Positions 1-10,240 of a stretch of 64,000 bases of DNA are shown one piece after another. This DNA is from Thermodesulfobacteriota bacterium (lineage in GTDB: Bacteria > Desulfobacterota > Binatia > UBA9968 > JAJDTQ01), in the NCBI GenBank assembly GCA_965116735.1, contig OZ220712.1, forward strand, positions 2,369,680-2,433,679, read 5' to 3'. A program made the translations under genes and the position numbers. The stretch's first letter is position 1, and each line of letters opens with the position of its first letter. The notes below the pieces were generated by a model that was not told the DNA's origin, ran no database searches, and saw nothing but the letters and a program-made list of their open reading frames with translations.

Positions 1-504
1 GGCCGCTTCCGCTACGGCTCCATGGCGACCATGAGCGACCGAGGCCGCGTCCGCAAGGAATCGTTCGCGGCCCGCGCCTTCTCGTTCGCCGTCGAGGATC
101 CGGAGCGGGAGATCCACCTGCTGCGCGGGCATTCCTTCGATCAACCCCTGGCGTCGAAGCGGGCCGGGTCTTTGCGACTCGTTGACACCGACGAGGCCCT
201 GGAGTTCGAGGCGACGCTGCCCGACGAGCAACCCACCTTCATGCGCGATACCGTCTCCATGATCCGGGCCGGCCTGGTGGGCGGAATCTCTCCCGGTTTC
301 CGAGTGCCTCCTCGAGACGTGGTTCCCGGCGCTGAAACCTTCGAACCGGAGCCGGGCAACCCGGACGTGGCAATCCGCGTGATCCGGAGGGCCGTGTTGT
401 TCGAGCTCTCGCTTGTGACGCGCCCGGCCTATCCCGATACCGAAGTGGATCTCCGCCAGTGGATGCCGGCGGCGACGCCGGAGAGGAGGCGCTGGTGGCT
501 CTGA
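1..504 (+). CDS. HK97-family phage prohead protease, N-terminus outside window
   Basis: The reading frame is open from nt 1. The C-terminal motif LFELSLVTRPAYPDT matches the conserved E-x-S-L-V-x-x-P-A signature of HK97/S78 prohead proteases. Confidence 0.6.
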   Translation, partial: GRFRYGSMATMSDRGRVRKESFAARAFSFAVEDPEREIHLLRGHSFDQPLASKRAGSLRLVDTDEALEFEATLPDEQPTFMRDTVSMIRAGLVGGISPGFRVPPRDVVPGAETFEPEPGNPDVAIRVIRRAVLFELSLVTRPAYPDTEVDLRQWMPAATPERRRWWL

Positions 505-875
505 GTCCCTGGCCGTCGAGCACGGCCACCGTCGCCTTGCGTGCGGCGACAAAAACCCTCCGAGCCGCCTTGGGCCGGGGCGAGAGCACGTCTCACCCCT
601 TTACGTTTGACGACGTGGACGCGGAAGTGCAGCGCCTGGGTGCGACCGTGGCGGCGCGTGTTGAAGAGTACGCCCCGAACGCGCCACAACCCTCGAAGGA
701 CGAAGCGGTGATCCGCGGCGCGGCCTGGCTCCGGGACACACGAGGGGCGCTTCCGAAAGAGTCCGTCGGCCCTCTGAGCGTGGAGCACGTGACGAATACC
801 GCGGCGTGGTTCCTCCACAGTGGCGCCGCCAGCCTCCTGACGCGCTGGAAGGTTCGTCGGGGAGGGGCTTGTTGA
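459..875 (+). CDS. Hypothetical phage protein, possibly a head-tail connector
   Basis: ORF of 138 aa between the protease and the next structural gene. It overlaps both neighbours, so it may be spurious. Confidence 0.25.
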   Translation: MDAGGDAGEEALVALSPWPSSTATVALRAATKTLRAALGRGESTSHPFTFDDVDAEVQRLGATVAARVEEYAPNAPQPSKDEAVIRGAAWLRDTRGALPKESVGPLSVEHVTNTAAWFLHSGAASLLTRWKVRRGGAC

Positions 876-1933
876 TGCGCTGGCCGTGGTCCAAACGCGA
901 GAAGCGGGAAAGCTCCTTCACGGACGCCTTGGTGACGCAGATCCTCGCGACGGCGTCCGGGGCGTCTCTTGCGCTGCCCACCACCATCGCGGCACTCGAG
1001 ACCGCCGCGAACCTCTACGCCCGGGCCTTCGCCGCGGCGAAGGTCCAGGGTCCTGCCTGGGCGCAAGTGGCGTTGTCTCCGGCGTGTCTCGGGATGATCG
1101 GCCGGGCGCTCATCCGCGAGGGAGAGATCGTGCTCGCCATTGACGCGGCAGACGGGGAGCTGCGCTTGTGGCCGGCCGCTGACCATGACGTGACGGGAGG
1201 GTATGACCCTGCCGGGTGGGTTTACAGGCTGAACTTGGCGGGTCCTTCCTACCTGGCGACGCGCACCGTGGGCGCGGAAGGTGTTGTCCACGTCCGCTAC
1301 GCCGCCGATCCCGCGCGGCCGTGGCGCGGCGTGGGGCCGTTGGACAGCGCCCGCACCACGGGCGCCCTGGCCGCCAGCCTCGAGCAACGATTGAGCGAAG
1401 AAGCCGGAGGCCCGGTGGGGCACCTGCTTCCGGTTCCGGCGGACGGCGGCGACGGTGGAGATGGCGATCCGCTCGCGAAGTTGAAAGCCGACGTCCGGGC
1501 CGCCAGGGGCCGGCCGCTCCTGATCGAGACGACCAGCGCGGGCTGGGGCGAGGGCCGCGCCAACGCCCCGAATCAGGACTGGCAGCCTCGCCGACTCGGG
1601 GCCAACCCACCGGCGACCCTGCCCGTGCTCCGGGACGCCGCCAGCATGGCCGTCCTGGACGCTTGCGGAGTGCCGCGGGCGCTGGCGGAATCAGCGGACG
1701 GAACCGCGGCCCGTGAAGGGTGGAGACGCTTCGTCATGGGCGCTGTGGAGCCCCTGCTCGGTATCGTAGGGGCCGAGGTGTCCCGCAAGCTCGAGACGGC
1801 CGTCTCCTTCGACCTGGGCGGCCTGTGGGCGCACGATCTGCAAGGCCGGGCCAGCGCGTTTCAACGGCTCGTGGCCGGTGGCGTGCCTGTTAACGAGGCC
1901 CTGGCGACGTCCGGTCTGCTCGCGGAGGAATGA
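806..1933 (+). CDS. Phage structural protein, portal-like or capsid-like
   Basis: ORF of 375 aa directly downstream of the prohead protease in the same orientation, with protein-like composition. The exact family cannot be resolved by eye. Confidence 0.4.
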   Translation: MVPPQWRRQPPDALEGSSGRGLLMRWPWSKREKRESSFTDALVTQILATASGASLALPTTIAALETAANLYARAFAAAKVQGPAWAQVALSPACLGMIGRALIREGEIVLAIDAADGELRLWPAADHDVTGGYDPAGWVYRLNLAGPSYLATRTVGAEGVVHVRYAADPARPWRGVGPLDSARTTGALAASLEQRLSEEAGGPVGHLLPVPADGGDGGDGDPLAKLKADVRAARGRPLLIETTSAGWGEGRANAPNQDWQPRRLGANPPATLPVLRDAASMAVLDACGVPRALAESADGTAAREGWRRFVMGAVEPLLGIVGAEVSRKLETAVSFDLGGLWAHDLQGRASAFQRLVAGGVPVNEALATSGLLAEE

Positions 1934-2139
1934 TGAATCCACCACGCGTGTGCCCCTGTGGCCGTCCTACCGTGACGCGGTACGACGATCACTGCGCCCG
2001 ATGTATCCGGCGCGCCAAGCCGGCGACGCGACCGATGGCTGGCTCCGTGCCGGTGGCTGGCGGGGGCGGGGGAGGGCGGCTGGGCAAGAGAGATCGTAAG
2101 TTCTGGGTCGCTCCTGGGGAACTTCAGCCCTTTTTTTGA
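1930..2139 (+). CDS. Small zinc-ribbon-like protein
   Basis: ATG overlaps the upstream stop (ATGA). It carries a CPCG...HCARC cysteine pattern. Confidence 0.3.
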   Translation: MMNPPRVCPCGRPTVTRYDDHCARCIRRAKPATRPMAGSVPVAGGGGGGRLGKRDRKFWVAPGELQPFF

Positions 2140-2423
2140 GGCGTGGTATCCTCGTCCTCGATGTAGCCCTCACTGCGTAAATGTTCGAAATAGGCCTTTT
2201 TGCTCATTGGACAGTTGGCGAGGTTTCGGGCTTGCCGCATGCTAACCTTAATTTGCTTAGGGATATAGTCGTGCCCCTTTGCCTTTGAGGCTCTTCTTAT
2301 TCCATAGGAAAAAAGAACCTTGCCATTGTACTCTATCTCGACAAAGCCGTGCCTAGTGTTGTCTCCGGAAGCCGCGGATAGTTTCTTGGCGATCTTCTCC
2401 GCATGTGTCTGGTTTAACACCAT
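2124..2423 (-). CDS. Hypothetical protein, cargo gene C of the low-GC module
   Basis: 99 aa and clearly lower GC than its surroundings. It is translationally coupled to the upstream gene (2423/2425) and has no recognisable family. Confidence 0.5.
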   Translation of the reverse strand: MVLNQTHAEKIAKKLSAASGDNTRHGFVEIEYNGKVLFSYGIRRASKAKGHDYIPKQIKVSMRQARNLANCPMSKKAYFEHLRSEGYIEDEDTTPQKKG

Positions 2424-2424
2424 T

Positions 2425-2916
2425 CTATTTGCGGGGTCGTAGGTGCTTCCGAAGGATGGTCAATTGCGTCCTGGGAGTGCTGCCAAGCTGCTTGGAAGGC
2501 CTGCGACTAAACACTTCATACATGTCAAGAATGTGTGCAGCGAGGTTTCCGACCGCATCCTCGCTGGTTTCTCCTGGCATGGCAACATTGGCCTTTTCAA
2601 AGCTTGCCGTGAAATCGTCAGGGGCATTTTGTATAACCCTCACCTCGATAGGCTTGATAACATCGTATGGTTCTTCCGGAAAGGCGTTGATAAACGTCAC
2701 CACGCAATAGGGCGCACCGGAATGCTGCGGGGAATGATTGGGAAGCTGACGGACGGCTTCATACCATTCATCAACATTGTGGGATTGTGGACTCCACGGC
2801 AGTCCAGGACCGGTCTGATCGTTACCCAAGAACTGGCTCGCAAGAATCCCTCTGACGATTCCTGGATCCCATCCGTAGCTATCGTCGGTCTTTGAGGCAC
2901 TGGCTTCATCTATCAC
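2425..2916 (-). CDS. Hypothetical protein, cargo gene B of the low-GC module
   Basis: 163 aa, low GC. It overlaps the upstream gene by 4 nt (2913-2916). Confidence 0.5.
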   Translation of the reverse strand: MIDEASASKTDDSYGWDPGIVRGILASQFLGNDQTGPGLPWSPQSHNVDEWYEAVRQLPNHSPQHSGAPYCVVTFINAFPEEPYDVIKPIEVRVIQNAPDDFTASFEKANVAMPGETSEDAVGNLAAHILDMYEVFSRRPSKQLGSTPRTQLTILRKHLRPRK

Positions 2917-3293
2917 TGGAGGGTTCCCTTTTTCTCTTCTTCCAGTCTCTGCCTCTGGAGATTTTCGTATTCGTCGACCTTACCGAGCAGCCATGTAGCG
3001 ATTGATCTTGCGTTTTCGGGTCTCATCACTACACCCACTGAGAGATGCCGTACATACTTGAGTTGACCGGGTTGGGGGTCGATCTGAGCGCCAATCCGAC
3101 CTTCCGGCTCCACCACGTGTGTAATTGAGGTCGGGAGCGCGTGCTGTTCCGAGTAAAGATGCATGGCGATTTCACCCTTATTCGTTACTCCTCCCCATGC
3201 CCCGTCAACCGCAACTAGCCGATAATCTTGGTCCTTCTCGAACTGAAAGACGGCCTTATTCGGGATCCCTTGTGAGGACCGCTTCGCTGCCAT
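2913..3293 (-). CDS. Hypothetical protein, cargo gene A of the low-GC module
   Basis: 126 aa, low GC, first gene of a tightly coupled three-gene minus-strand operon. Confidence 0.5.
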   Translation of the reverse strand: MAAKRSSQGIPNKAVFQFEKDQDYRLVAVDGAWGGVTNKGEIAMHLYSEQHALPTSITHVVEPEGRIGAQIDPQPGQLKYVRHLSVGVVMRPENARSIATWLLGKVDEYENLQRQRLEEEKKGTLQ

Positions 3294-3662
3294 ATTTCAC
3301 CACCTCTTTCCGGTTCTTTGAGGATATGGACGGGCTTGACGGGTAGCGACTCATGTTTACAAGGAGGGAAGTTCCCTGATCAGATCCATTCACCCTAATG
3401 GTCAGGCCCTAGAGCGATAGGGAGGACGATGTTCGAGCAACAGCTCCCTCTCTTCTTGGTCTAGTAAAAGCGAAAGTGCTTGTCAAGAAGTTTCAGTTGG
3501 GTCTCCACACGCTCCCCCGCCCAGCCGCGCGGCGCCGGCAAGGCACAAGTAGACCGGCAAGCCGCTCTCGCTGGCGGCGGTCGGTCACGGCCTACCCACT
3601 GCGCGACATGCATCCGCACAGCCGCGCCACCATGTCCAACCCCCGCCACCAGTTGATCGTTC

Positions 3663-3693
3663 GATCAATCGGTTTCCCGTAAACCGATTGATC
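3663..3693. promoter_or_regulatory. Perfect 13-bp inverted repeat with a 5-nt loop, putative operator or terminator
   Basis: GATCAATCGGTTT-cccgt-AAACCGATTGATC lies about 30 bp upstream of the promoter-like element. Confidence 0.4.
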
Positions 3694-3724
3694 CGCCTAT
3701 CTCCGTCCGGGCGGTACCCCCCAC

Positions 3725-3753
3725 TTGACTCGATTCCCGTTCCAAGGTATAAA
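3725..3753 (+). promoter_or_regulatory. Sigma70-like promoter: TTGACT, 17-nt spacer, TATAAA
   Basis: Near-consensus -35 and -10 hexamers with a 17-nt spacer, about 30 nt upstream of an AGGAGG RBS and the TTG start at 3783. Confidence 0.45.
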
Positions 3754-3782
3754 TCCGTAAGCTTCGTTAGGAGGTATACCCC

Positions 3783-3995
3783 TTGCCAACCAAAGATGGA
3801 GCATACGTCACCGCGCATTTGAACCCGCGCGACATGGATGATTTCAAGCGTGTGAAGGCCTACATGCGGGCGAAGAACGAGGCATCCGGGTGGCCGGCCG
3901 AACGCGCGGATCCTACAAACTCAAACGTCGTGCGCTTCGCCCTGCTGATTGCGCGGGGTACTATCGAGGCTTGGGAGAAGGAAGTGGCACCCTAA
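3783..3995 (+). CDS. Small putative DNA-binding protein (ribbon-helix-helix-like) of the integration module
   Basis: 70 aa with an AGGAGG RBS 8 nt upstream of a TTG start. A predicted strand-helix-helix layout is read by eye. It sits upstream of the integrase. Confidence 0.4.
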   Translation: MPTKDGAYVTAHLNPRDMDDFKRVKAYMRAKNEASGWPAERADPTNSNVVRFALLIARGTIEAWEKEVAP

Positions 3996-4024
3996 GCTTC
4001 GGGCAAGTCTCTGTGATCAGACCA

Positions 4025-4228
4025 ATGAGGAGGTCCCCAATCACCGAGGTCGAGCTCGCGCGCTACCTGAAGGCGTTGCGGCGTGCCGGCTTCGATTCGG
4101 GCCGCGTGGAAATTTCGCCGGACGGCAAGATTTCCGTCATCGCGGGGGAGGGGGAGCCCGAACCCACGGGCGCCAACGACTTCGACAGGTTGATAGGGAG
4201 GGTCAAGAACGATGCGCCGCCGTCTTAG
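4025..4228 (+). CDS. Small hypothetical protein immediately upstream of the integrase, possibly an excisionase-like accessory
   Basis: ATG at 4025 within ORF 3890..4228. Its stop overlaps the integrase start. Confidence 0.35.
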   Translation: MRRSPITEVELARYLKALRRAGFDSGRVEISPDGKISVIAGEGEPEPTGANDFDRLIGRVKNDAPPS

Positions 4229-5285
4229 AAATCCGTTTCCGGGCGTGACGGTCGTCGAGGATCGCCACGGCAAGAGCCGCTACCGCCTGCGCCGGGTCGT
4301 CAAGGGCCGGAGCGTGGACACCTACCTCCCCAATCCGTATGCTTCGCCAGCGTTTCGAGCGGCATACGACGAAGCGATTGAGGGCGCGCGTGTAGCAACA
4401 ACGCGCCGCGCACAGCCCGGCACGCTGGCCTACCTCATCACCTCGTACCTGGATTCCACGGCGTTCAGAAACCTCGCCGCCGATACGCGGCGGTCAAAGC
4501 GTTACCGCTTGGACTGGCTCAGGGAAGCCGTTGGCCAAGGCCGGTACGCCTCGATGGAACCCCGCCACGTCGAAGCACTCATGCAAAAGAAGGGCGGGCC
4601 AGCTGCGGGCAACCGGCTCAAGGCGGACTTGGCGCAACTGTACAGGTACGCGGCGAAGCGGTTCGGCTACACCGGCCCGAACCCTGCGGCACTCGCGGAT
4701 GGACTCAAGGTCAAGCCTGGCGGTTATCACACCTGGACCGAGGAGGAGATCGCAATCTACCGAGCGCACCATCCCACCGGGACCAAGGCGCGCTTGGCGC
4801 TGGAGATCTTCCTCGGCACGGGCGCGGCCAGACAGGACGGAGCTGCACTCACTCGCGGGAACATCCGCGGGGATCGGCTCTACTATCGCCGGCACAAGAC
4901 CGGCCAGGACGTGGACCTGCCCATTATGCCAGAGCTGGCCGCGGAGCTGGCGCACGTTCCTGCGAACCAGATGATGCTCATCGGCCACAGCCAGAACGGC
5001 CGGGCATACTCCGTCGCCGGACTCGGCAACGCCTTCGCCGACTGGTGCCGGGATGCGGGATTGCCACACTGCTCCGCTCATGGATTGCGCAAGGCAGGCG
5101 CGCGGCGACTAGCCGAAGCGGGCGCCACGGAGTTCGAGATCATGGCGTTTCTCGCGCACAAGAACACGCGGGAAGCGGCGAGGTACGCGATGGCGGCGAA
5201 CCGAAGCAGGCTGACCAGCTCGGGCATGGCGAAGCTCAAAAAAGTTGTCCAACCTTTGCGGAGGTTGGACAACTCGGACCGCTAA
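4212..5285 (+). CDS. int: Tyrosine-type site-specific recombinase (phage integrase)
   Basis: C-terminal catalytic region HSAHGLRKAGARRLAEAGATEFEIMAFLAHKN...AARY carries the R..HxxR..Y signature of tyrosine recombinases. It ends 20 nt from the tRNA 3' end. Confidence 0.9.
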   Translation: MRRRLRNPFPGVTVVEDRHGKSRYRLRRVVKGRSVDTYLPNPYASPAFRAAYDEAIEGARVATTRRAQPGTLAYLITSYLDSTAFRNLAADTRRSKRYRLDWLREAVGQGRYASMEPRHVEALMQKKGGPAAGNRLKADLAQLYRYAAKRFGYTGPNPAALADGLKVKPGGYHTWTEEEIAIYRAHHPTGTKARLALEIFLGTGAARQDGAALTRGNIRGDRLYYRRHKTGQDVDLPIMPELAAELAHVPANQMMLIGHSQNGRAYSVAGLGNAFADWCRDAGLPHCSAHGLRKAGARRLAEAGATEFEIMAFLAHKNTREAARYAMAANRSRLTSSGMAKLKKVVQPLRRLDNSDR

Positions 5286-5305
5286 CATCGTGAAATATAT
5301 AGAGA

Positions 5306-5382
5306 AAAAGCAAGAGGTGGTGGTCGCAGCAGGACTCGAACCTGCGACCTCTTGCATGTGAGGCAAGCGCTCTAGCCGACTG
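5306..5382 (-). tRNA. tRNA-Val (anticodon CAC)
   Basis: Minus-strand sequence GGTCGCATAGCTCAGTCGGCTAGAGCGCTTGCCTCACATGCAAGAGGTCGCAGGTTCGAGTCCTGCTGCGACCACCA. Hand folding gives a 7-bp acceptor stem, a D arm, an anticodon stem CTTGC/GCAAG with loop CTCACAT, a T-loop TTCGAGT and an encoded CCA. Confidence 0.85.
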
Positions 5383-5463
5383 AGCTATGCGACCACTGTG
5401 GGACCTTGACGTTTACCACCTCAGGGGGCGGGTTTCAACAACGCCGCGACCCCGGCGGGCAAG

Positions 5464-5783: not shown

Positions 5784-6191
5784 TCAGCCCTTGGCCATCT
5801 CCAGGATCTCGTCGTAGTGGGCGTCGCTCACCGGGACAAAGGAAAGCCGGCCCAGACGGAACAGGTCGAAGCCCTCCAGCTTGGGGTTGAGCTTCATCTC
5901 GGCCAGCGACACCTCGCGCTTCAACGCCTTGCCCACCTTGATGTCGAACACCAGGAGCCTGGGGTCATCCTTCTCGGGATCCGCATAGGCGCCGGTGGTG
6001 GCGGTGCCGAGGCCGACGCAGACCCGCTCGCCGCCGGTATGGTAGACGATGCAGCGATCGCCCTTCTTCACGGTCTTGAGGTGCTTGAGCGCAAGATTGT
6101 TCTTGATGCCGTCCCAGATCGTCGACTTGTCCCGCTGCAGGTCGGCAAAGGAATAAACGCTGGGTTCGGTCTTGAGCAGCCAGTTGGCCAT
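5784..6191 (-). CDS. EVE domain protein (PUA-like, DUF55)
   Basis: MANWLLKTEPSVYSF...GIKN...KKGDRCIVYHTGGER is typical of the EVE family. AAGGAGGAGG SD precedes the ATG at 6191. Confidence 0.8.
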   Translation of the reverse strand: MANWLLKTEPSVYSFADLQRDKSTIWDGIKNNLALKHLKTVKKGDRCIVYHTGGERVCVGLGTATTGAYADPEKDDPRLLVFDIKVGKALKREVSLAEMKLNPKLEGFDLFRLGRLSFVPVSDAHYDEILEMAKG

Positions 6192-6332
6192 CGTAATCCT
6201 CCTCCTTGTTCGGCGTCGTCTTGAGATACTGCAAACCGGCACATGCGGCAACCGTGGGGAGGAGTCAGACGCCCAGAGACATTTGTCTGAAACTGTCGCT
6301 CGGATCCCCGTCGCCCCGAATCCGCGCTGGTT

Positions 6333-6608
6333 TCAGCCTGCGACGAGGTTGATCTCCACCTTCATGCCGACAGCGTCCGCATAGCGTTCCAATGTCTTCA
6401 GCGACGGTTTGTGGCCGCTTTCCAGGCGAGCGACGGTAGGCTGGCTCGTCCCCATCCGGATAGCAACCTCGCTCTGACTCATTCCCGCCCTGACCCGTGC
6501 CTCAATGAGCTTCCGTGCCAATTCGAACTCGGGTTTGAGGGCCTCGAACTCCGCCCGGAACTCGGGATCCTTGTTCCACTCATTCCGCAGATCATCAAAT
6601 TTAATCAT
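6333..6608 (-). CDS. HTH XRE-family antitoxin (HigA-like)
   Basis: HTH segment AGMSQSEVAIRMGTSQPTVARLESG. Encoded immediately downstream of the toxin gene. Confidence 0.8.
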   Translation of the reverse strand: MIKFDDLRNEWNKDPEFRAEFEALKPEFELARKLIEARVRAGMSQSEVAIRMGTSQPTVARLESGHKPSLKTLERYADAVGMKVEINLVAG

Positions 6609-6668
6609 AATATAGTTTCCTGCTATCGATCATTTGTGGTCGTATCCGAGAGTCGACTTATGGAATGG

Positions 6669-6995
6669 TCATTGATCTACCTCCTTCATTCTGGACAAGG
6701 CTGTCTCGACTGCCCTCTTGGGGATCCTTCGGGTCTTTTTGTGAAACGCATGCAAGACGACGATGCGACGGTCCTTGGCTGTCACATACAGAGCACGGGC
6801 AATCCCGTCACGGCCCTTGAGTCGCATTTCCCAGAGTTTGTCCCGTACAGGTTTGACATAAGGCTCGCGAACTTGATTCAGACCGAACTCTTCGATCAGG
6901 CCGACAATATGGTCCATCTTCGCTCGCATATCCGCAGGGAGTCTCTCAAGCTCTTCTCTGACCGTTTGGTTCAGGATTTCCACGCGCCAGACCAT
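6669..6995 (-). CDS. RelE/ParE-superfamily toxin (HigB / phage Gp49-like)
   Basis: MVWRVEILNQTVREELERLPADMRAKMDHIVGLIEEFG...KLWEMRLKGRDGIARALYV fits the Gp49/HigB-like family. Toxin-first gene order matches HigBA. Confidence 0.75.
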   Translation of the reverse strand: MVWRVEILNQTVREELERLPADMRAKMDHIVGLIEEFGLNQVREPYVKPVRDKLWEMRLKGRDGIARALYVTAKDRRIVVLHAFHKKTRRIPKRAVETALSRMKEVDQ

Positions 6996-7107
6996 CCCCA
7001 AGATATACCGATTTTGATATAGAGGGCAAGCGGAGTCACCCACAGATGATCGGAAAATCTCGTACCGCTCCCGCTTTCCCGATGGGTCTGTGGTACAACA
7101 GATATTC

Positions 7108-8081: not shown

Positions 8082-9500
8082 TTGCGCGCTAATCTTCGTA
8101 AGGTCGTCTTCCACACGGACCGGGGATCCCCGGCGAATCGAGCATCAGGAAAGCGAGGGCCGCTAGTGAGCACGCATGGTCCTACCGGAAGAGACAGTCG
8201 GGTGCTGGGGGCTGAGGGCGCACGGCTGACGCGCAGAGCGGTCATTCGCGCCGGACTGGCAGCGGTCCTGGCGCCGCCCTGGATCCACTCCCCTCGCCCC
8301 GCCGACGCGGCCGCCGTCCGCGGAATCGGACCCGGCGGCGAGATCGTGCTGGGAGTGTCCGCCGCCTTCTCCGGCCCTTCCCGCGGCCTCGGCACCGAGC
8401 TCTACCGCGGCGCCAAATCGTACTTCAACCACGTCAACGAGAACGGCGGCGTCAACGGCCGCAAGATCGTCCTGAAGCTCTACGACGACGGCTACCAGCC
8501 TGATCCCTGCGTCGAGAACACCGTCAAGCTGATGCTGGAGGACCAGGTCTTCCTGCTCTTCGGGTACGTGGGCACCCCCACCGTCACCCGCGTTCTGCCG
8601 ATGTTGAAGAAGTTCCAGGCCCAGCGGGTCTACCTGTTCTTCCCCTTCACCGGCGCCCAACCCCAGCGCGAGCCGCCTTACGGCGAGTTCGCCTTCAACC
8701 TGCGGGCGTCCTACCGCCAGGAGACCGCGGGCCTGGTGAACAACTTCGTGCGCATAGGCCGGGAACGCATCGCCATGTTCTACCAGGCCGATGCCTACGG
8801 CCGCAGCGGCTGGGCGGGCGTGCGGGCGGCCCTGGCCAAGCACGGCATCGAGATGGTCGGCGAGGCCACGTACCGCCGGGGGTCGCGGTTCACCGGCAGC
8901 TTCCGGGCCCAGGTGGAGATCCTGAAGAAGGCCTCTCCCCACGCCGTGATCTGCGTCGGCGCCTACGCCGCCTGCGCCGGCTTCGCCCGCGACGCCGTGG
9001 ACCTGGGCCTGCGGGTCCCCATCGCCAACCTCTCCTTCGTCGGCAGCGAGAACCTGCTCAACCTGCTGTCGGAAGGGCAGGACGACCCCGATGCCTACGC
9101 CCGCTACCTGGTGAACTCACAGGTGGTGCCCAGCTACGAGGACACCTCGATCCCGGCCGTCAAGGAGTACCGCGAGCTGATGGCGCGCCACGACCCCCAG
9201 GTGCCCAAGGAACTGGTGAAGGAAGCCTACGAGCCGTTTCCGCACAGCTTCGTGAGCCTCGAAGGGTTTCTGGATGCGAAGCTGCTGGTGGAAATACTCC
9301 GGCGCCTCAAGGGCAGACCGGACAGAAGCGGCCTGGAGGAGGCCGTGTTCTCGGTGCGCGACTACGACCTGGGCATCGGCGAGGCGGTGTCCTTCGGGCC
9401 GGAGCGCCGGCAGGGGCTGCAGAAAGTCTACTACACGGTCGTCGAGGGGGGCCGGTTCGTCACCCTGGACGACTGGAAAGCCAAGTTCGGACGATCATGA
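8082..9500 (+). CDS. Periplasmic substrate-binding protein, LivJ-like (type 1 PBP), probable Tat signal
   Basis: Twin-arginine-like LTRRAVIRAGLAAVLAPP followed by a Peripla_BP_6-like body. The true start is probably GTG 8166 or 8199. Confidence 0.8.
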   Translation: MRANLRKVVFHTDRGSPANRASGKRGPLVSTHGPTGRDSRVLGAEGARLTRRAVIRAGLAAVLAPPWIHSPRPADAAAVRGIGPGGEIVLGVSAAFSGPSRGLGTELYRGAKSYFNHVNENGGVNGRKIVLKLYDDGYQPDPCVENTVKLMLEDQVFLLFGYVGTPTVTRVLPMLKKFQAQRVYLFFPFTGAQPQREPPYGEFAFNLRASYRQETAGLVNNFVRIGRERIAMFYQADAYGRSGWAGVRAALAKHGIEMVGEATYRRGSRFTGSFRAQVEILKKASPHAVICVGAYAACAGFARDAVDLGLRVPIANLSFVGSENLLNLLSEGQDDPDAYARYLVNSQVVPSYEDTSIPAVKEYRELMARHDPQVPKELVKEAYEPFPHSFVSLEGFLDAKLLVEILRRLKGRPDRSGLEEAVFSVRDYDLGIGEAVSFGPERRQGLQKVYYTVVEGGRFVTLDDWKAKFGRS

Positions 9501-10240
9501 AGATCAGGAAGCTCTTTCAGAAGACCCAGTTCGGCATCTTCGGGCTCTTCGGCCTGATCGTGCTGTCCACCTCGGCGCTGACCATCTACACGGTGCAGAC
9601 CCACCTGTCGGCGGAGTACGAGAGCAACAGCCGCAACATCGCCAAGACCATCGCGGACGCCAGCGTGGACATCCTGCTCAACCGCAACCTCGCCACGCTC
9701 CAGTCGCTCATCGACCAGTTCGTGGAGATCCAGGGCATCCGCTACGTCTACATCACCAGCGACAACGGCGAATACCTGGCCCACACCTTCGTTCCCGGCA
9801 TCCCCGAAGCGATTTTGGAGAGCGATCCGTTCGAGACCGCCACGGTCAAGCGGACGCTGCCCGGAATGGGCGAGTTCGTGGAAGTGGCCAGCCCGATCCT
9901 GGCAGGGTTCGGCGGCGTCGTGCACGTCGGCATGGACCTCGACACCATCGGCCTCAAGATACAGCGGGCCATCGGCCAGCAGGTGTACCTCATCTCGGTC
10001 CTGCTGGTGGTGGGGGTACTGGGGGCCATCTGGTTCGTCAATCTCGCCGCCAAGCCGTTGGGGGAACTCCTGGCCTTCGCCGTGAAATTGGCAAAGGAGG
10101 AGGACGCCGGCGGCGCCGGCGACGAGAAGATCCTCGCGCGCGACGACGAGGCCGGAGAACTGGCGCGCCTGCTCCTCCACGTCGCGCAACGCAAGAACGG
10201 CGCCGAAGAGCCGCCGCCGTCGACGGAACGGACCGGGTAG
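9497..10240 (+). CDS. Membrane sensor protein with periplasmic domain, two TM segments and a HAMP-like domain, no output domain
   Basis: ATG overlaps the SBP stop (ATGA). TM1 is FGIFGLFGLIVLSTSALTIY, followed by a roughly 150-aa extracytoplasmic domain, TM2 VYLISVLLVVGVLGAIWFV and a HAMP-like segment. No kinase or MCP signalling domain is present. Confidence 0.6.
   Translation: MKIRKLFQKTQFGIFGLFGLIVLSTSALTIYTVQTHLSAEYESNSRNIAKTIADASVDILLNRNLATLQSLIDQFVEIQGIRYVYITSDNGEYLAHTFVPGIPEAILESDPFETATVKRTLPGMGEFVEVASPILAGFGGVVHVGMDLDTIGLKIQRAIGQQVYLISVLLVVGVLGAIWFVNLAAKPLGELLAFAVKLAKEEDAGGAGDEKILARDDEAGELARLLLHVAQRKNGAEEPPPSTERTG

Follow-up and report, generated by a model that had tools for sequence, protein, structure and literature searches.

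A probable tripartite hicBA-type toxin-antitoxin cassette on a tRNA-Val-associated element with phage head genes in a Binatia genome

What is the function of a short, GC-poor operon that lies within a phage-like element beside a tRNA-Val gene in the genome of a Thermodesulfobacteriota bacterium (Binatia)? The operon is located in a window of 64,000 nucleotides (nt) (contig OZ220712.1, positions 2,369,680 to 2,433,679; window coordinates are used hereafter) and consists of three minus-strand genes, designated A, B, and C. A sequence-only reading of the window had recognized no family in any of the three proteins and had suggested that the genes were defense, anti-defense, or toxin-immunity cargo. 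On the basis of the comparisons described below, A, B, and C probably form one operon that represents a tripartite type II toxin-antitoxin (TA) cargo module of the hicBA type, carried by an element at tRNA-Val that has head genes only.

The open reading frames (ORFs) confirmed the tight coupling, the base composition, and the placement that had been described for the three genes. The stop codon of A and the start codon of B overlap by 4 nt (GTGA), and the TAG stop codon of B is separated from the ATG of C by a single base. The guanine-plus-cytosine (GC) content of positions 2124 to 3293 is 0.518, compared with 0.660 in the whole window, 0.700 in the left flank, and 0.636 in the right flank; this is the minimum among 629 sliding windows of 1,170 nt (mean, 0.660; standard deviation, 0.032), approximately 4.4 standard deviations low. 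The GC content at third codon positions is 0.55 to 0.59 in the cassette genes versus 0.82 in the portal gene and 0.79 in the integrase gene. The cassette is flanked by genes for a prohead protease and a portal protein on one side and by the integrase gene and tRNA-Val on the other. DNA of the window was also found in one ENA contig and one Logan contig.

Genes B and C compared with Class 8 hicBA

None of the three proteins had a match at default thresholds in Pfam, PHROGs, PADLOC, or NCBIfam, the PADLOC-DB v2 hidden Markov models (HMMs) gave no match to A, B, or C at an E value of ≤1, and single-sequence searches of the PDB with each protein returned nothing meaningful. The earlier statement that no family could be recognized holds for these curated libraries; it does not extend to comparisons with Class 8 HicB and HicA, which B and C match, or to A, which belongs to a large family. 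A, B, and C are real genes: C and A have homologs, and the C-terminal domain of B is conserved upstream of C homologs.

Sequence comparison, which provides the decisive link, identifies C as a putative divergent toxin of the HicA type. A search of 5.8 billion protein clusters yielded 13 homologs of C beyond its own sequence (35 to 57% identity), and in the resulting family of 14 members, residues H25 (codon 2349 to 2351), R43, R44, H51, and D52 are invariant. For comparison, Class 8 HicA and HicB sequences were taken from Table S1 of Gerdes (2024, mBio; PMC10865869), and 10 HicA sequences were used. The C-family HMM matched Class 8 HicA over its full length (19 to 30 bits) and gave no match to Class 7 HicA. 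Profile-profile alignment of the C family with Class 8 HicA by hhalign covered 86 columns (Prob, 96.3; P = 1.8e-9). In these alignments, H25 of C coincides with a histidine kept in 10 of 10 Class 8 HicA sequences, and a C-terminal CPMSxxxY...G-I motif is common to both groups. A confident AlphaFold2 (AF2) model of C, generated from the 14-sequence alignment (pLDDT, 82.7; pTM, 0.70), contains a helix (residues 5 to 14), three strands (18 to 21, 25 to 32, and 35 to 43), and three further helices (53 to 57, 62 to 70, and 75 to 85), giving the alpha-beta-beta-beta-alpha core of a double-stranded RNA-binding domain (dsRBD) and two additional C-terminal helices (62 to 70 and 75 to 85). By analogy, H25, which follows helix 1, may be catalytic. 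Matches of the C profile to NHL-repeat beta-hairpins in the PDB were rejected as spurious.

B is the predicted antitoxin partner of C and is likely of the HicB type. Only the C-terminal domain is common to the B homologs, whose ORFs range from approximately 110 to 238 amino acids (aa); with full-length B as the query, only B itself was recovered from the same protein clusters. This domain aligned with Class 8 HicB's C-terminal domain over 79 columns (hhalign Prob, 96.0; P = 4.8e-9). The only PDB matches of the B-domain profile were HicB 6u0i (E = 0.063), HicB 6hpb (E = 0.10), and 3k6q (E = 0.34), and the alignments fall on the N-terminal HicB fold. The conserved tail at the C terminus of B is also kept where a locus has no A-like gene. 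No DNA-binding domain was detected in B. Taken together, B and C appear from their sequences to be a bacterial relative of Class 8 hicBA with a short HicB.

We then located B-C pairs elsewhere by scanning for a degenerate DNA motif corresponding to GIRR-x5-GHD[YH]IP of C, which was validated on the window. The scan detected 7 genome loci, mostly in Candidatus Binatia metagenome-assembled genomes (MAGs) together with deltaproteobacterial and Nitrospiraceae MAGs, and 20 metagenome contigs; soil and groundwater are among the sources of B-C pairs, and the same scan of IMG/VR yielded 0 contigs. The loci recovered in other sequences are given L numbers here. All loci with sequence remaining ahead of C have the B domain as the immediate upstream neighbor of C, and the distance between the end of this domain and the C start is approximately 20 nt or less in all loci, with overlaps similar to the coupling in the window also present in L012, L013, L014, and L065. 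In other genomes the cassette typically has a lower GC content than its surroundings and often adjoins integrase or insertion sequence (IS) genes; B-C pairs in L003, L011, and L017 occupy non-phage chromosomal contexts. In two contigs from different samples (L012 and L032), C is split by the same frameshift and B is intact, which may reflect pseudogenization or decay of the toxin gene.

Gene A and the DUF3467 family

Below the family threshold, sequence similarity suggests that A, a putative accessory protein, is related to DUF3467. The direct search of the 5.8 billion clusters returned one homolog of A, and a profile search run against 1.84 billion representatives (clusters defined at 50% identity) returned 2,296 clusters at an E value of ≤1e-3 and 836 at ≤1e-10. 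Where the source gives any name to members of this family, it is "hypothetical protein" only. Sub-threshold matches to PF11950 (DUF3467) were present in 22 of 70 A-family members (best E = 2e-4). Sequence searches revealed no PDB relative of the A family or of DUF3467, no SecB similarity of A or its family in Pfam or in a PDB profile search at an E value of ≤10, and no recognizable helix-turn-helix (HTH) or ribbon-helix-helix (RHH) domain in A. A was also considered as a HicB domain that had split off; this was rejected at the sequence level, as the A-family HMM had no match to the N-terminal domains of Class 8 HicB. Full-text searches of the literature for DUF3467 or PF11950 returned no relevant paper.

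The A-B-C trio recurs in L003 (with A frameshifted), L014, and L065/L066, in the last of these again beside a portal gene, and L013 has A-B on a contig that stops short of C. The first slot of the operon could be compared for 20 distinct B-C loci in which the upstream sequence was long enough. It is filled by an A-family gene in 5 loci, a DUF3467 gene in 4, and a look-alike gene in 4, i.e., in 13 of the 20. The DUF3467 genes, bona fide or near threshold, are those of L023/L038 (E = 2.6e-8; 34.2 bits against a cutoff of 25), L025, L034, and L009, and the third, look-alike group comprises those of L017, L020, L021, and L029. At L011, in a Binatia genome, the gene directly upstream of B encodes a protein of 265 aa that is not DUF3467-like and has a weakly proteasome-beta-like N terminus (Pfam E = 0.076).

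Genes of the A family also occur beside other partners (Table 1). In two IMG/VR contigs (L041 and L053), A-like genes are start/stop-coupled to the gene in the antitoxin position; the trio of L041 lies downstream of a LexA-like repressor, and that of L053 is inserted between the terminase and portal genes. At L067 to L069, Pfam gave no confident assignment for the partners of the A-like genes; a RelE-like toxin at L068 is an impression by eye only. A tblastn search of phages and plasmids with A and a DUF3467 protein yielded a single weak A-like match, on the megaplasmid of Methylorubrum extorquens AM1 (L070), where the A-like ORF adjoins an ORF of approximately 328 aa that looks by eye only like an IS110-family transposase. 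We tentatively propose, as a possibility short of an expectation, that the A family and DUF3467 are widespread accessory components of TA and conflict operons, functioning as a portable first gene that joins antitoxin-toxin pairs of unrelated families, among them Class-8-like HicBA, PemK/MazF-type, and Panacea-type pairs, and that might act through the N-terminal extensions of antitoxins or as the missing transcriptional regulator.

Carrier element and alternative explanations

The element that carries the cassette is approximately 9 kb long and is integrated at tRNA-Val; its part in the window covers positions 1 to 5394, and it is present as a whole in L001 (7030 to 16105). There, tRNA-Val is followed by the integrase gene and two small ORFs, then by A-B-C, which is on the opposite strand, and then by the portal gene, a 138-aa ORF, the S78 protease, capsid, and HNH genes, the large terminase gene in two ORFs, and finally two more small ORFs. 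The succession of terminase, HNH, capsid, protease, and portal genes is unusual, and the element has head and packaging genes without tail genes. It resembles either a phage satellite able to form capsids or a prophage that has decayed.

Several results weigh against a tripartite hicBA-type module. Comparison of the C model with the PDB and BFVD by Foldseek gave nothing significant and no HicA. Pfam HicA_toxin did not match C or its 14 relatives up to an E value of 10, and neither HicB-type models nor PADLOC gave a match to C or B even at an E value of ≤10. The PDB HicB matches of the B profile are individually nonsignificant (E, ~0.06 to 0.1), and Class 8 hicBA is itself known from bioinformatics only. 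For A, the match to PF11950 (residues 84 to 111) has an E value of 0.15 and a score of 12.6 bits against a gathering threshold of 25, its profile-profile alignment with DUF3467 is weak (hhalign P = 0.044), and the AF2 model, built from two sequences, has a pLDDT of only 37.7. A search around the operon for promoters, terminators, and operators found no promoter-like site and no operator adjoining A; the one notable element was the 13-nt inverted repeat described below. In M. extorquens AM1, the A-like ORF runs into the start of a small membrane protein gene, with another such gene behind, so that it stands ahead of small membrane proteins and not of a recognizable TA pair. Finally, the first gene is unrelated or absent in 7 of the 20 B-C loci, and A is therefore not obligatory. 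As to whether the three genes travel together, B-C linkage is strict and the complete trio recurs, whereas an A-like first gene is missing from those seven loci.

The seven loci would fit a self-sufficient two-gene hicBA formed by B and C, with A as an unrelated cargo gene (a small regulator or an anti-defense gene) that shares the promoter, as would the A family (2,296 clusters) being far larger than the C family and having members beside other partners. We consider this explanation unlikely in view of the 4-nt A/B overlap in the window, which has comparable counterparts in L013, L014, and L065, the 13 of 20 first slots occupied by A-family, DUF3467, or possibly related genes across divergent B-C pairs, and the coupling of A-like genes to an antitoxin-position gene in L041 and L053. 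We regard as highly improbable the alternative in which C would be an RNase that is HEPN-like or novel in some other way and the trio would be a defense system unrelated to known TA families. The sequence-only reading had pointed to an R-x6-H spacing weakly reminiscent of HEPN-type RNases; this spacing is invariant in the 14-member bacterial family (R44-x6-H51), and the lack of any curated library match and of HicA among the Foldseek results would agree with a novel enzyme. The suggestion of a HEPN-type motif nevertheless found no support: the C model is alpha/beta and not all-alpha, no HEPN match was found in Pfam or PADLOC, and the R-x6-H spacing is not kept among the Class 8 relatives.

It is scarcely credible that the phage-like element uses the three gene products in morphogenesis or as accessory proteins, for example for head completion or scaffolding. 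In both the window and L065 the cassette does adjoin a portal gene, and the A-like trio of L053 lies between terminase and portal genes; however, the cassette is encoded on the strand opposite to the head genes and lies 15 to 20 GC points below them, there is no PHROG match, B-C pairs occur in the non-phage contexts of L003, L017, and L011, and no matches were obtained in 50,697 phage records or, for the C motif, in IMG/VR. The tripartite hicBA-type module remains our preferred explanation. The earlier suggestion of cargo genes with a toxin-immunity function held up.

Several other features of the surroundings were recorded (Table 1). A perfect 13-nt inverted repeat (GATCAATCGGTTT-N5-AAACCGATTGATC) is present approximately 370 nt upstream of A, within the intergenic region that separates A from a divergent 70-aa ORF, and may be an operator of the regulatory switch of the element. 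The portal gene is followed by an ORF of 69 aa whose product has a zinc-ribbon-like CxxC...CxxC motif; this ORF is convergent with C and overlaps the 3' end of C by 16 nt. Just beyond tRNA-Val lies a second low-GC (~0.50 to 0.53) TA-like pair, composed of a Gp49/HigB-like gene and then a gene for an Xre-type HTH protein, and an EVE-domain protein is also encoded.

Table 1. Coordinates of the cassette genes and their parts, of nearby features, and of related loci in other sequences
Sequence	Feature	Positions	Strand	Description	Basis
Window	Gene A	2913-3293	minus	126 aa, ATG start, first gene of the operon	ORF list
Window	Gene B	2425-2916	minus	163 aa, GTG start	ORF list
Window	B, N-terminal ~80 aa	2677-2916	minus	Nonconserved extension	Length and sequence vary among homologs
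Window	B, C-terminal ~83 aa	2428-2676	minus	Putative HicB-fold domain and conserved LGPxPxxQLxxL tail	hhalign, PDB profile
Window	Gene C	2124-2423	minus	99 aa, ATG start	ORF list
Window	Putative Shine-Dalgarno-like sequence	3298-3306	minus	GAGGTGGTG, ends 4 nt ahead of the ATG of A
Window	Low-GC tract (~0.50-0.54)	2100-3450		Delimits the putatively acquired cassette	Base composition
Window	69-aa ORF	1930-2139	plus	Zinc-ribbon-like motif
Window	Inverted repeat	3663-3693		Candidate operator
Window	70-aa ORF	3783-3995		Divergent from A
Window	EVE-domain protein	5784-6251	minus
Window	Second TA-like pair	6333-6995	minus	Low GC
Window	Gp49/HigB-like gene	~6669-6995	minus	PF05973
Window	Xre-type HTH gene	6333-6608	minus	91 aa
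L041 (IMG/VR)	Trio	8457-9441	plus	A-like, then 112-aa ORF, then PemK/MazF toxin	PF02452, 4.6e-13
L053 (IMG/VR)	Trio	8586-10039	minus	A-like, then SocA_Panacea antitoxin, then 149-aa ORF	PF13274, 1.8e-16
L067-L069	Three-gene operons			Headed by A-like gene; two tightly linked small ORFs downstream
L070 (NC_012811.1, ~174621-174977)	A-like ORF	2507-3514		Region holding the A-like ORF (117 aa), which the record does not annotate
L011	Gene directly upstream of B	6293-7090	plus	265 aa
L012	Frameshifted C	4575-4930	minus
L032	Frameshifted C	275-632	minus

Proposed mode of action and comparison with known systems

From HicAB biology (PMC10865869), a mode of action for B and C can be proposed. Free C, as a HicA-type RNase, would cleave RNA through the histidine-containing face of its dsRBD fold, leading to translation arrest, and the C-terminal HicB-fold domain of B would bind and mask C. 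A most likely acts on the antitoxin or on the operon. Possible roles are those of an omega-like or PaaR-like operon repressor that supplies the DNA binding absent from B, of a stabilizer or chaperone of the variable N-terminal extension of B, analogous to the SecB/ChAD (chaperone addiction) logic of toxin-antitoxin-chaperone (TAC) systems, or of a trigger sensor. We infer such a regulator, chaperone, or sensor because B lacks an autoregulating HTH or RHH domain and because the regulation of hicBA Classes 7 and 8 was left open by Gerdes (PMC10865869). The recurrent coupled first gene is an obvious candidate answer to that question, i.e., how hicBA is regulated without a DNA-binding domain. The toxicity of C, its neutralization, the role of A, and the biological role of the cassette are presented here as predictions; the cassette probably serves to stabilize the element, to abort infection by phages that compete with it, or both. 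Since its carrier is a small element with head and packaging genes only, it may matter for competition between satellites and phages or among phages.

Compared with canonical HicAB, represented here by systems of Escherichia coli K-12, Burkholderia pseudomallei, and Streptococcus pneumoniae (PDB 6hpb, 6g26, and 5yrz) and by Thermus thermophilus TTHA1913 (1whz), the cassette has a reversed gene order, an antitoxin without HTH or RHH, a toxin unmatched by Pfam HicA_toxin and approximately 35 residues longer, and a third gene. Gerdes, who defined 14 genetic contexts of HicA, described Class 8 hicBA from Thermococcus, Archaeoglobus, methanogens, and Syntrophomonas, with a HicA of ~95 aa that has an alpha-beta-beta-beta-alpha core and two small extra C-terminal helices and with a HicB of 331 to 376 aa in three domains, of which the middle one is OB (oligonucleotide-binding)/tRNA-ligase-like and the C-terminal one has the HicB fold, without a DNA-binding domain (PMC10865869). 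The two systems have in common the order of tightly linked genes (hicB and then hicA), a HicA of ~95 to 100 aa (99 in C) with a dsRBD core, two extra C-terminal helices, and the CPMSxxxY...G-I motif, and an antitoxin with a C-terminal HicB fold, a conserved tail, and no recognizable DNA-binding domain. They differ in that B has 163 aa (its relatives, ~110 to 238) versus 331 to 376, only its C-terminal ~80 aa align, and it lacks both the N-terminal and the middle (tRNA-ligase/OB-like) domains. In addition, a separate first gene (A or DUF3467-like) is usual here and goes unmentioned in the case of Class 8, the hosts here are bacterial (Binatia, Nitrospiraceae, and deltaproteobacteria), and the invariant RRxSKxxGHDYIP of the C family is absent from Class 8. 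The A/DUF3467-like first gene is possibly a new element, and the tie to Class 8 would widen the host range of a mostly archaeal class and add a much shorter version of HicB.

Three-gene TA operons with a separate regulator are exemplified by omega-epsilon-zeta. Another third-gene regulator is found in paaR-paaA-parE (cited in PMC8832971). As in these operons, the first gene here is not the antitoxin gene, and no DNA-binding domain is present in the antitoxin; unlike their regulators, A has no recognizable HTH or RHH, and no operator was identified next to it. The likeness of A to DUF3467 lies in the bona fide members that fill the A slot upstream of other B-C pairs, in similar size, and in an aromatic-x-N strand near the N terminus and a VxMxPxxAxxL...L strand-helix near the C terminus; the differences are a score for A below the PF11950 threshold and a weak profile-profile alignment. 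Through these operons, DUF3467 and its relatives gain a first functional context. In the Panacea study, third genes were only sporadic and of other kinds.

In TAC systems, a portable SecB-like chaperone is combined with HigBA, MqsRA, or HicAB (Bordes 2016; PMC5105189). The cassette resembles them in being a three-gene TA operon, in having a portable third family associated with several unrelated TA families, and in the nonconserved extensions of its antitoxins. It is not a member of that group, because A has no SecB similarity and the extension of B is N-terminal and not a C-terminal ChAD; moreover, A stands at the head of the operon. If the A family is a general TA accessory module, it would provide a second example of the TAC principle, based on a different protein family, and would help to find new toxin and antitoxin families through guilt by association.

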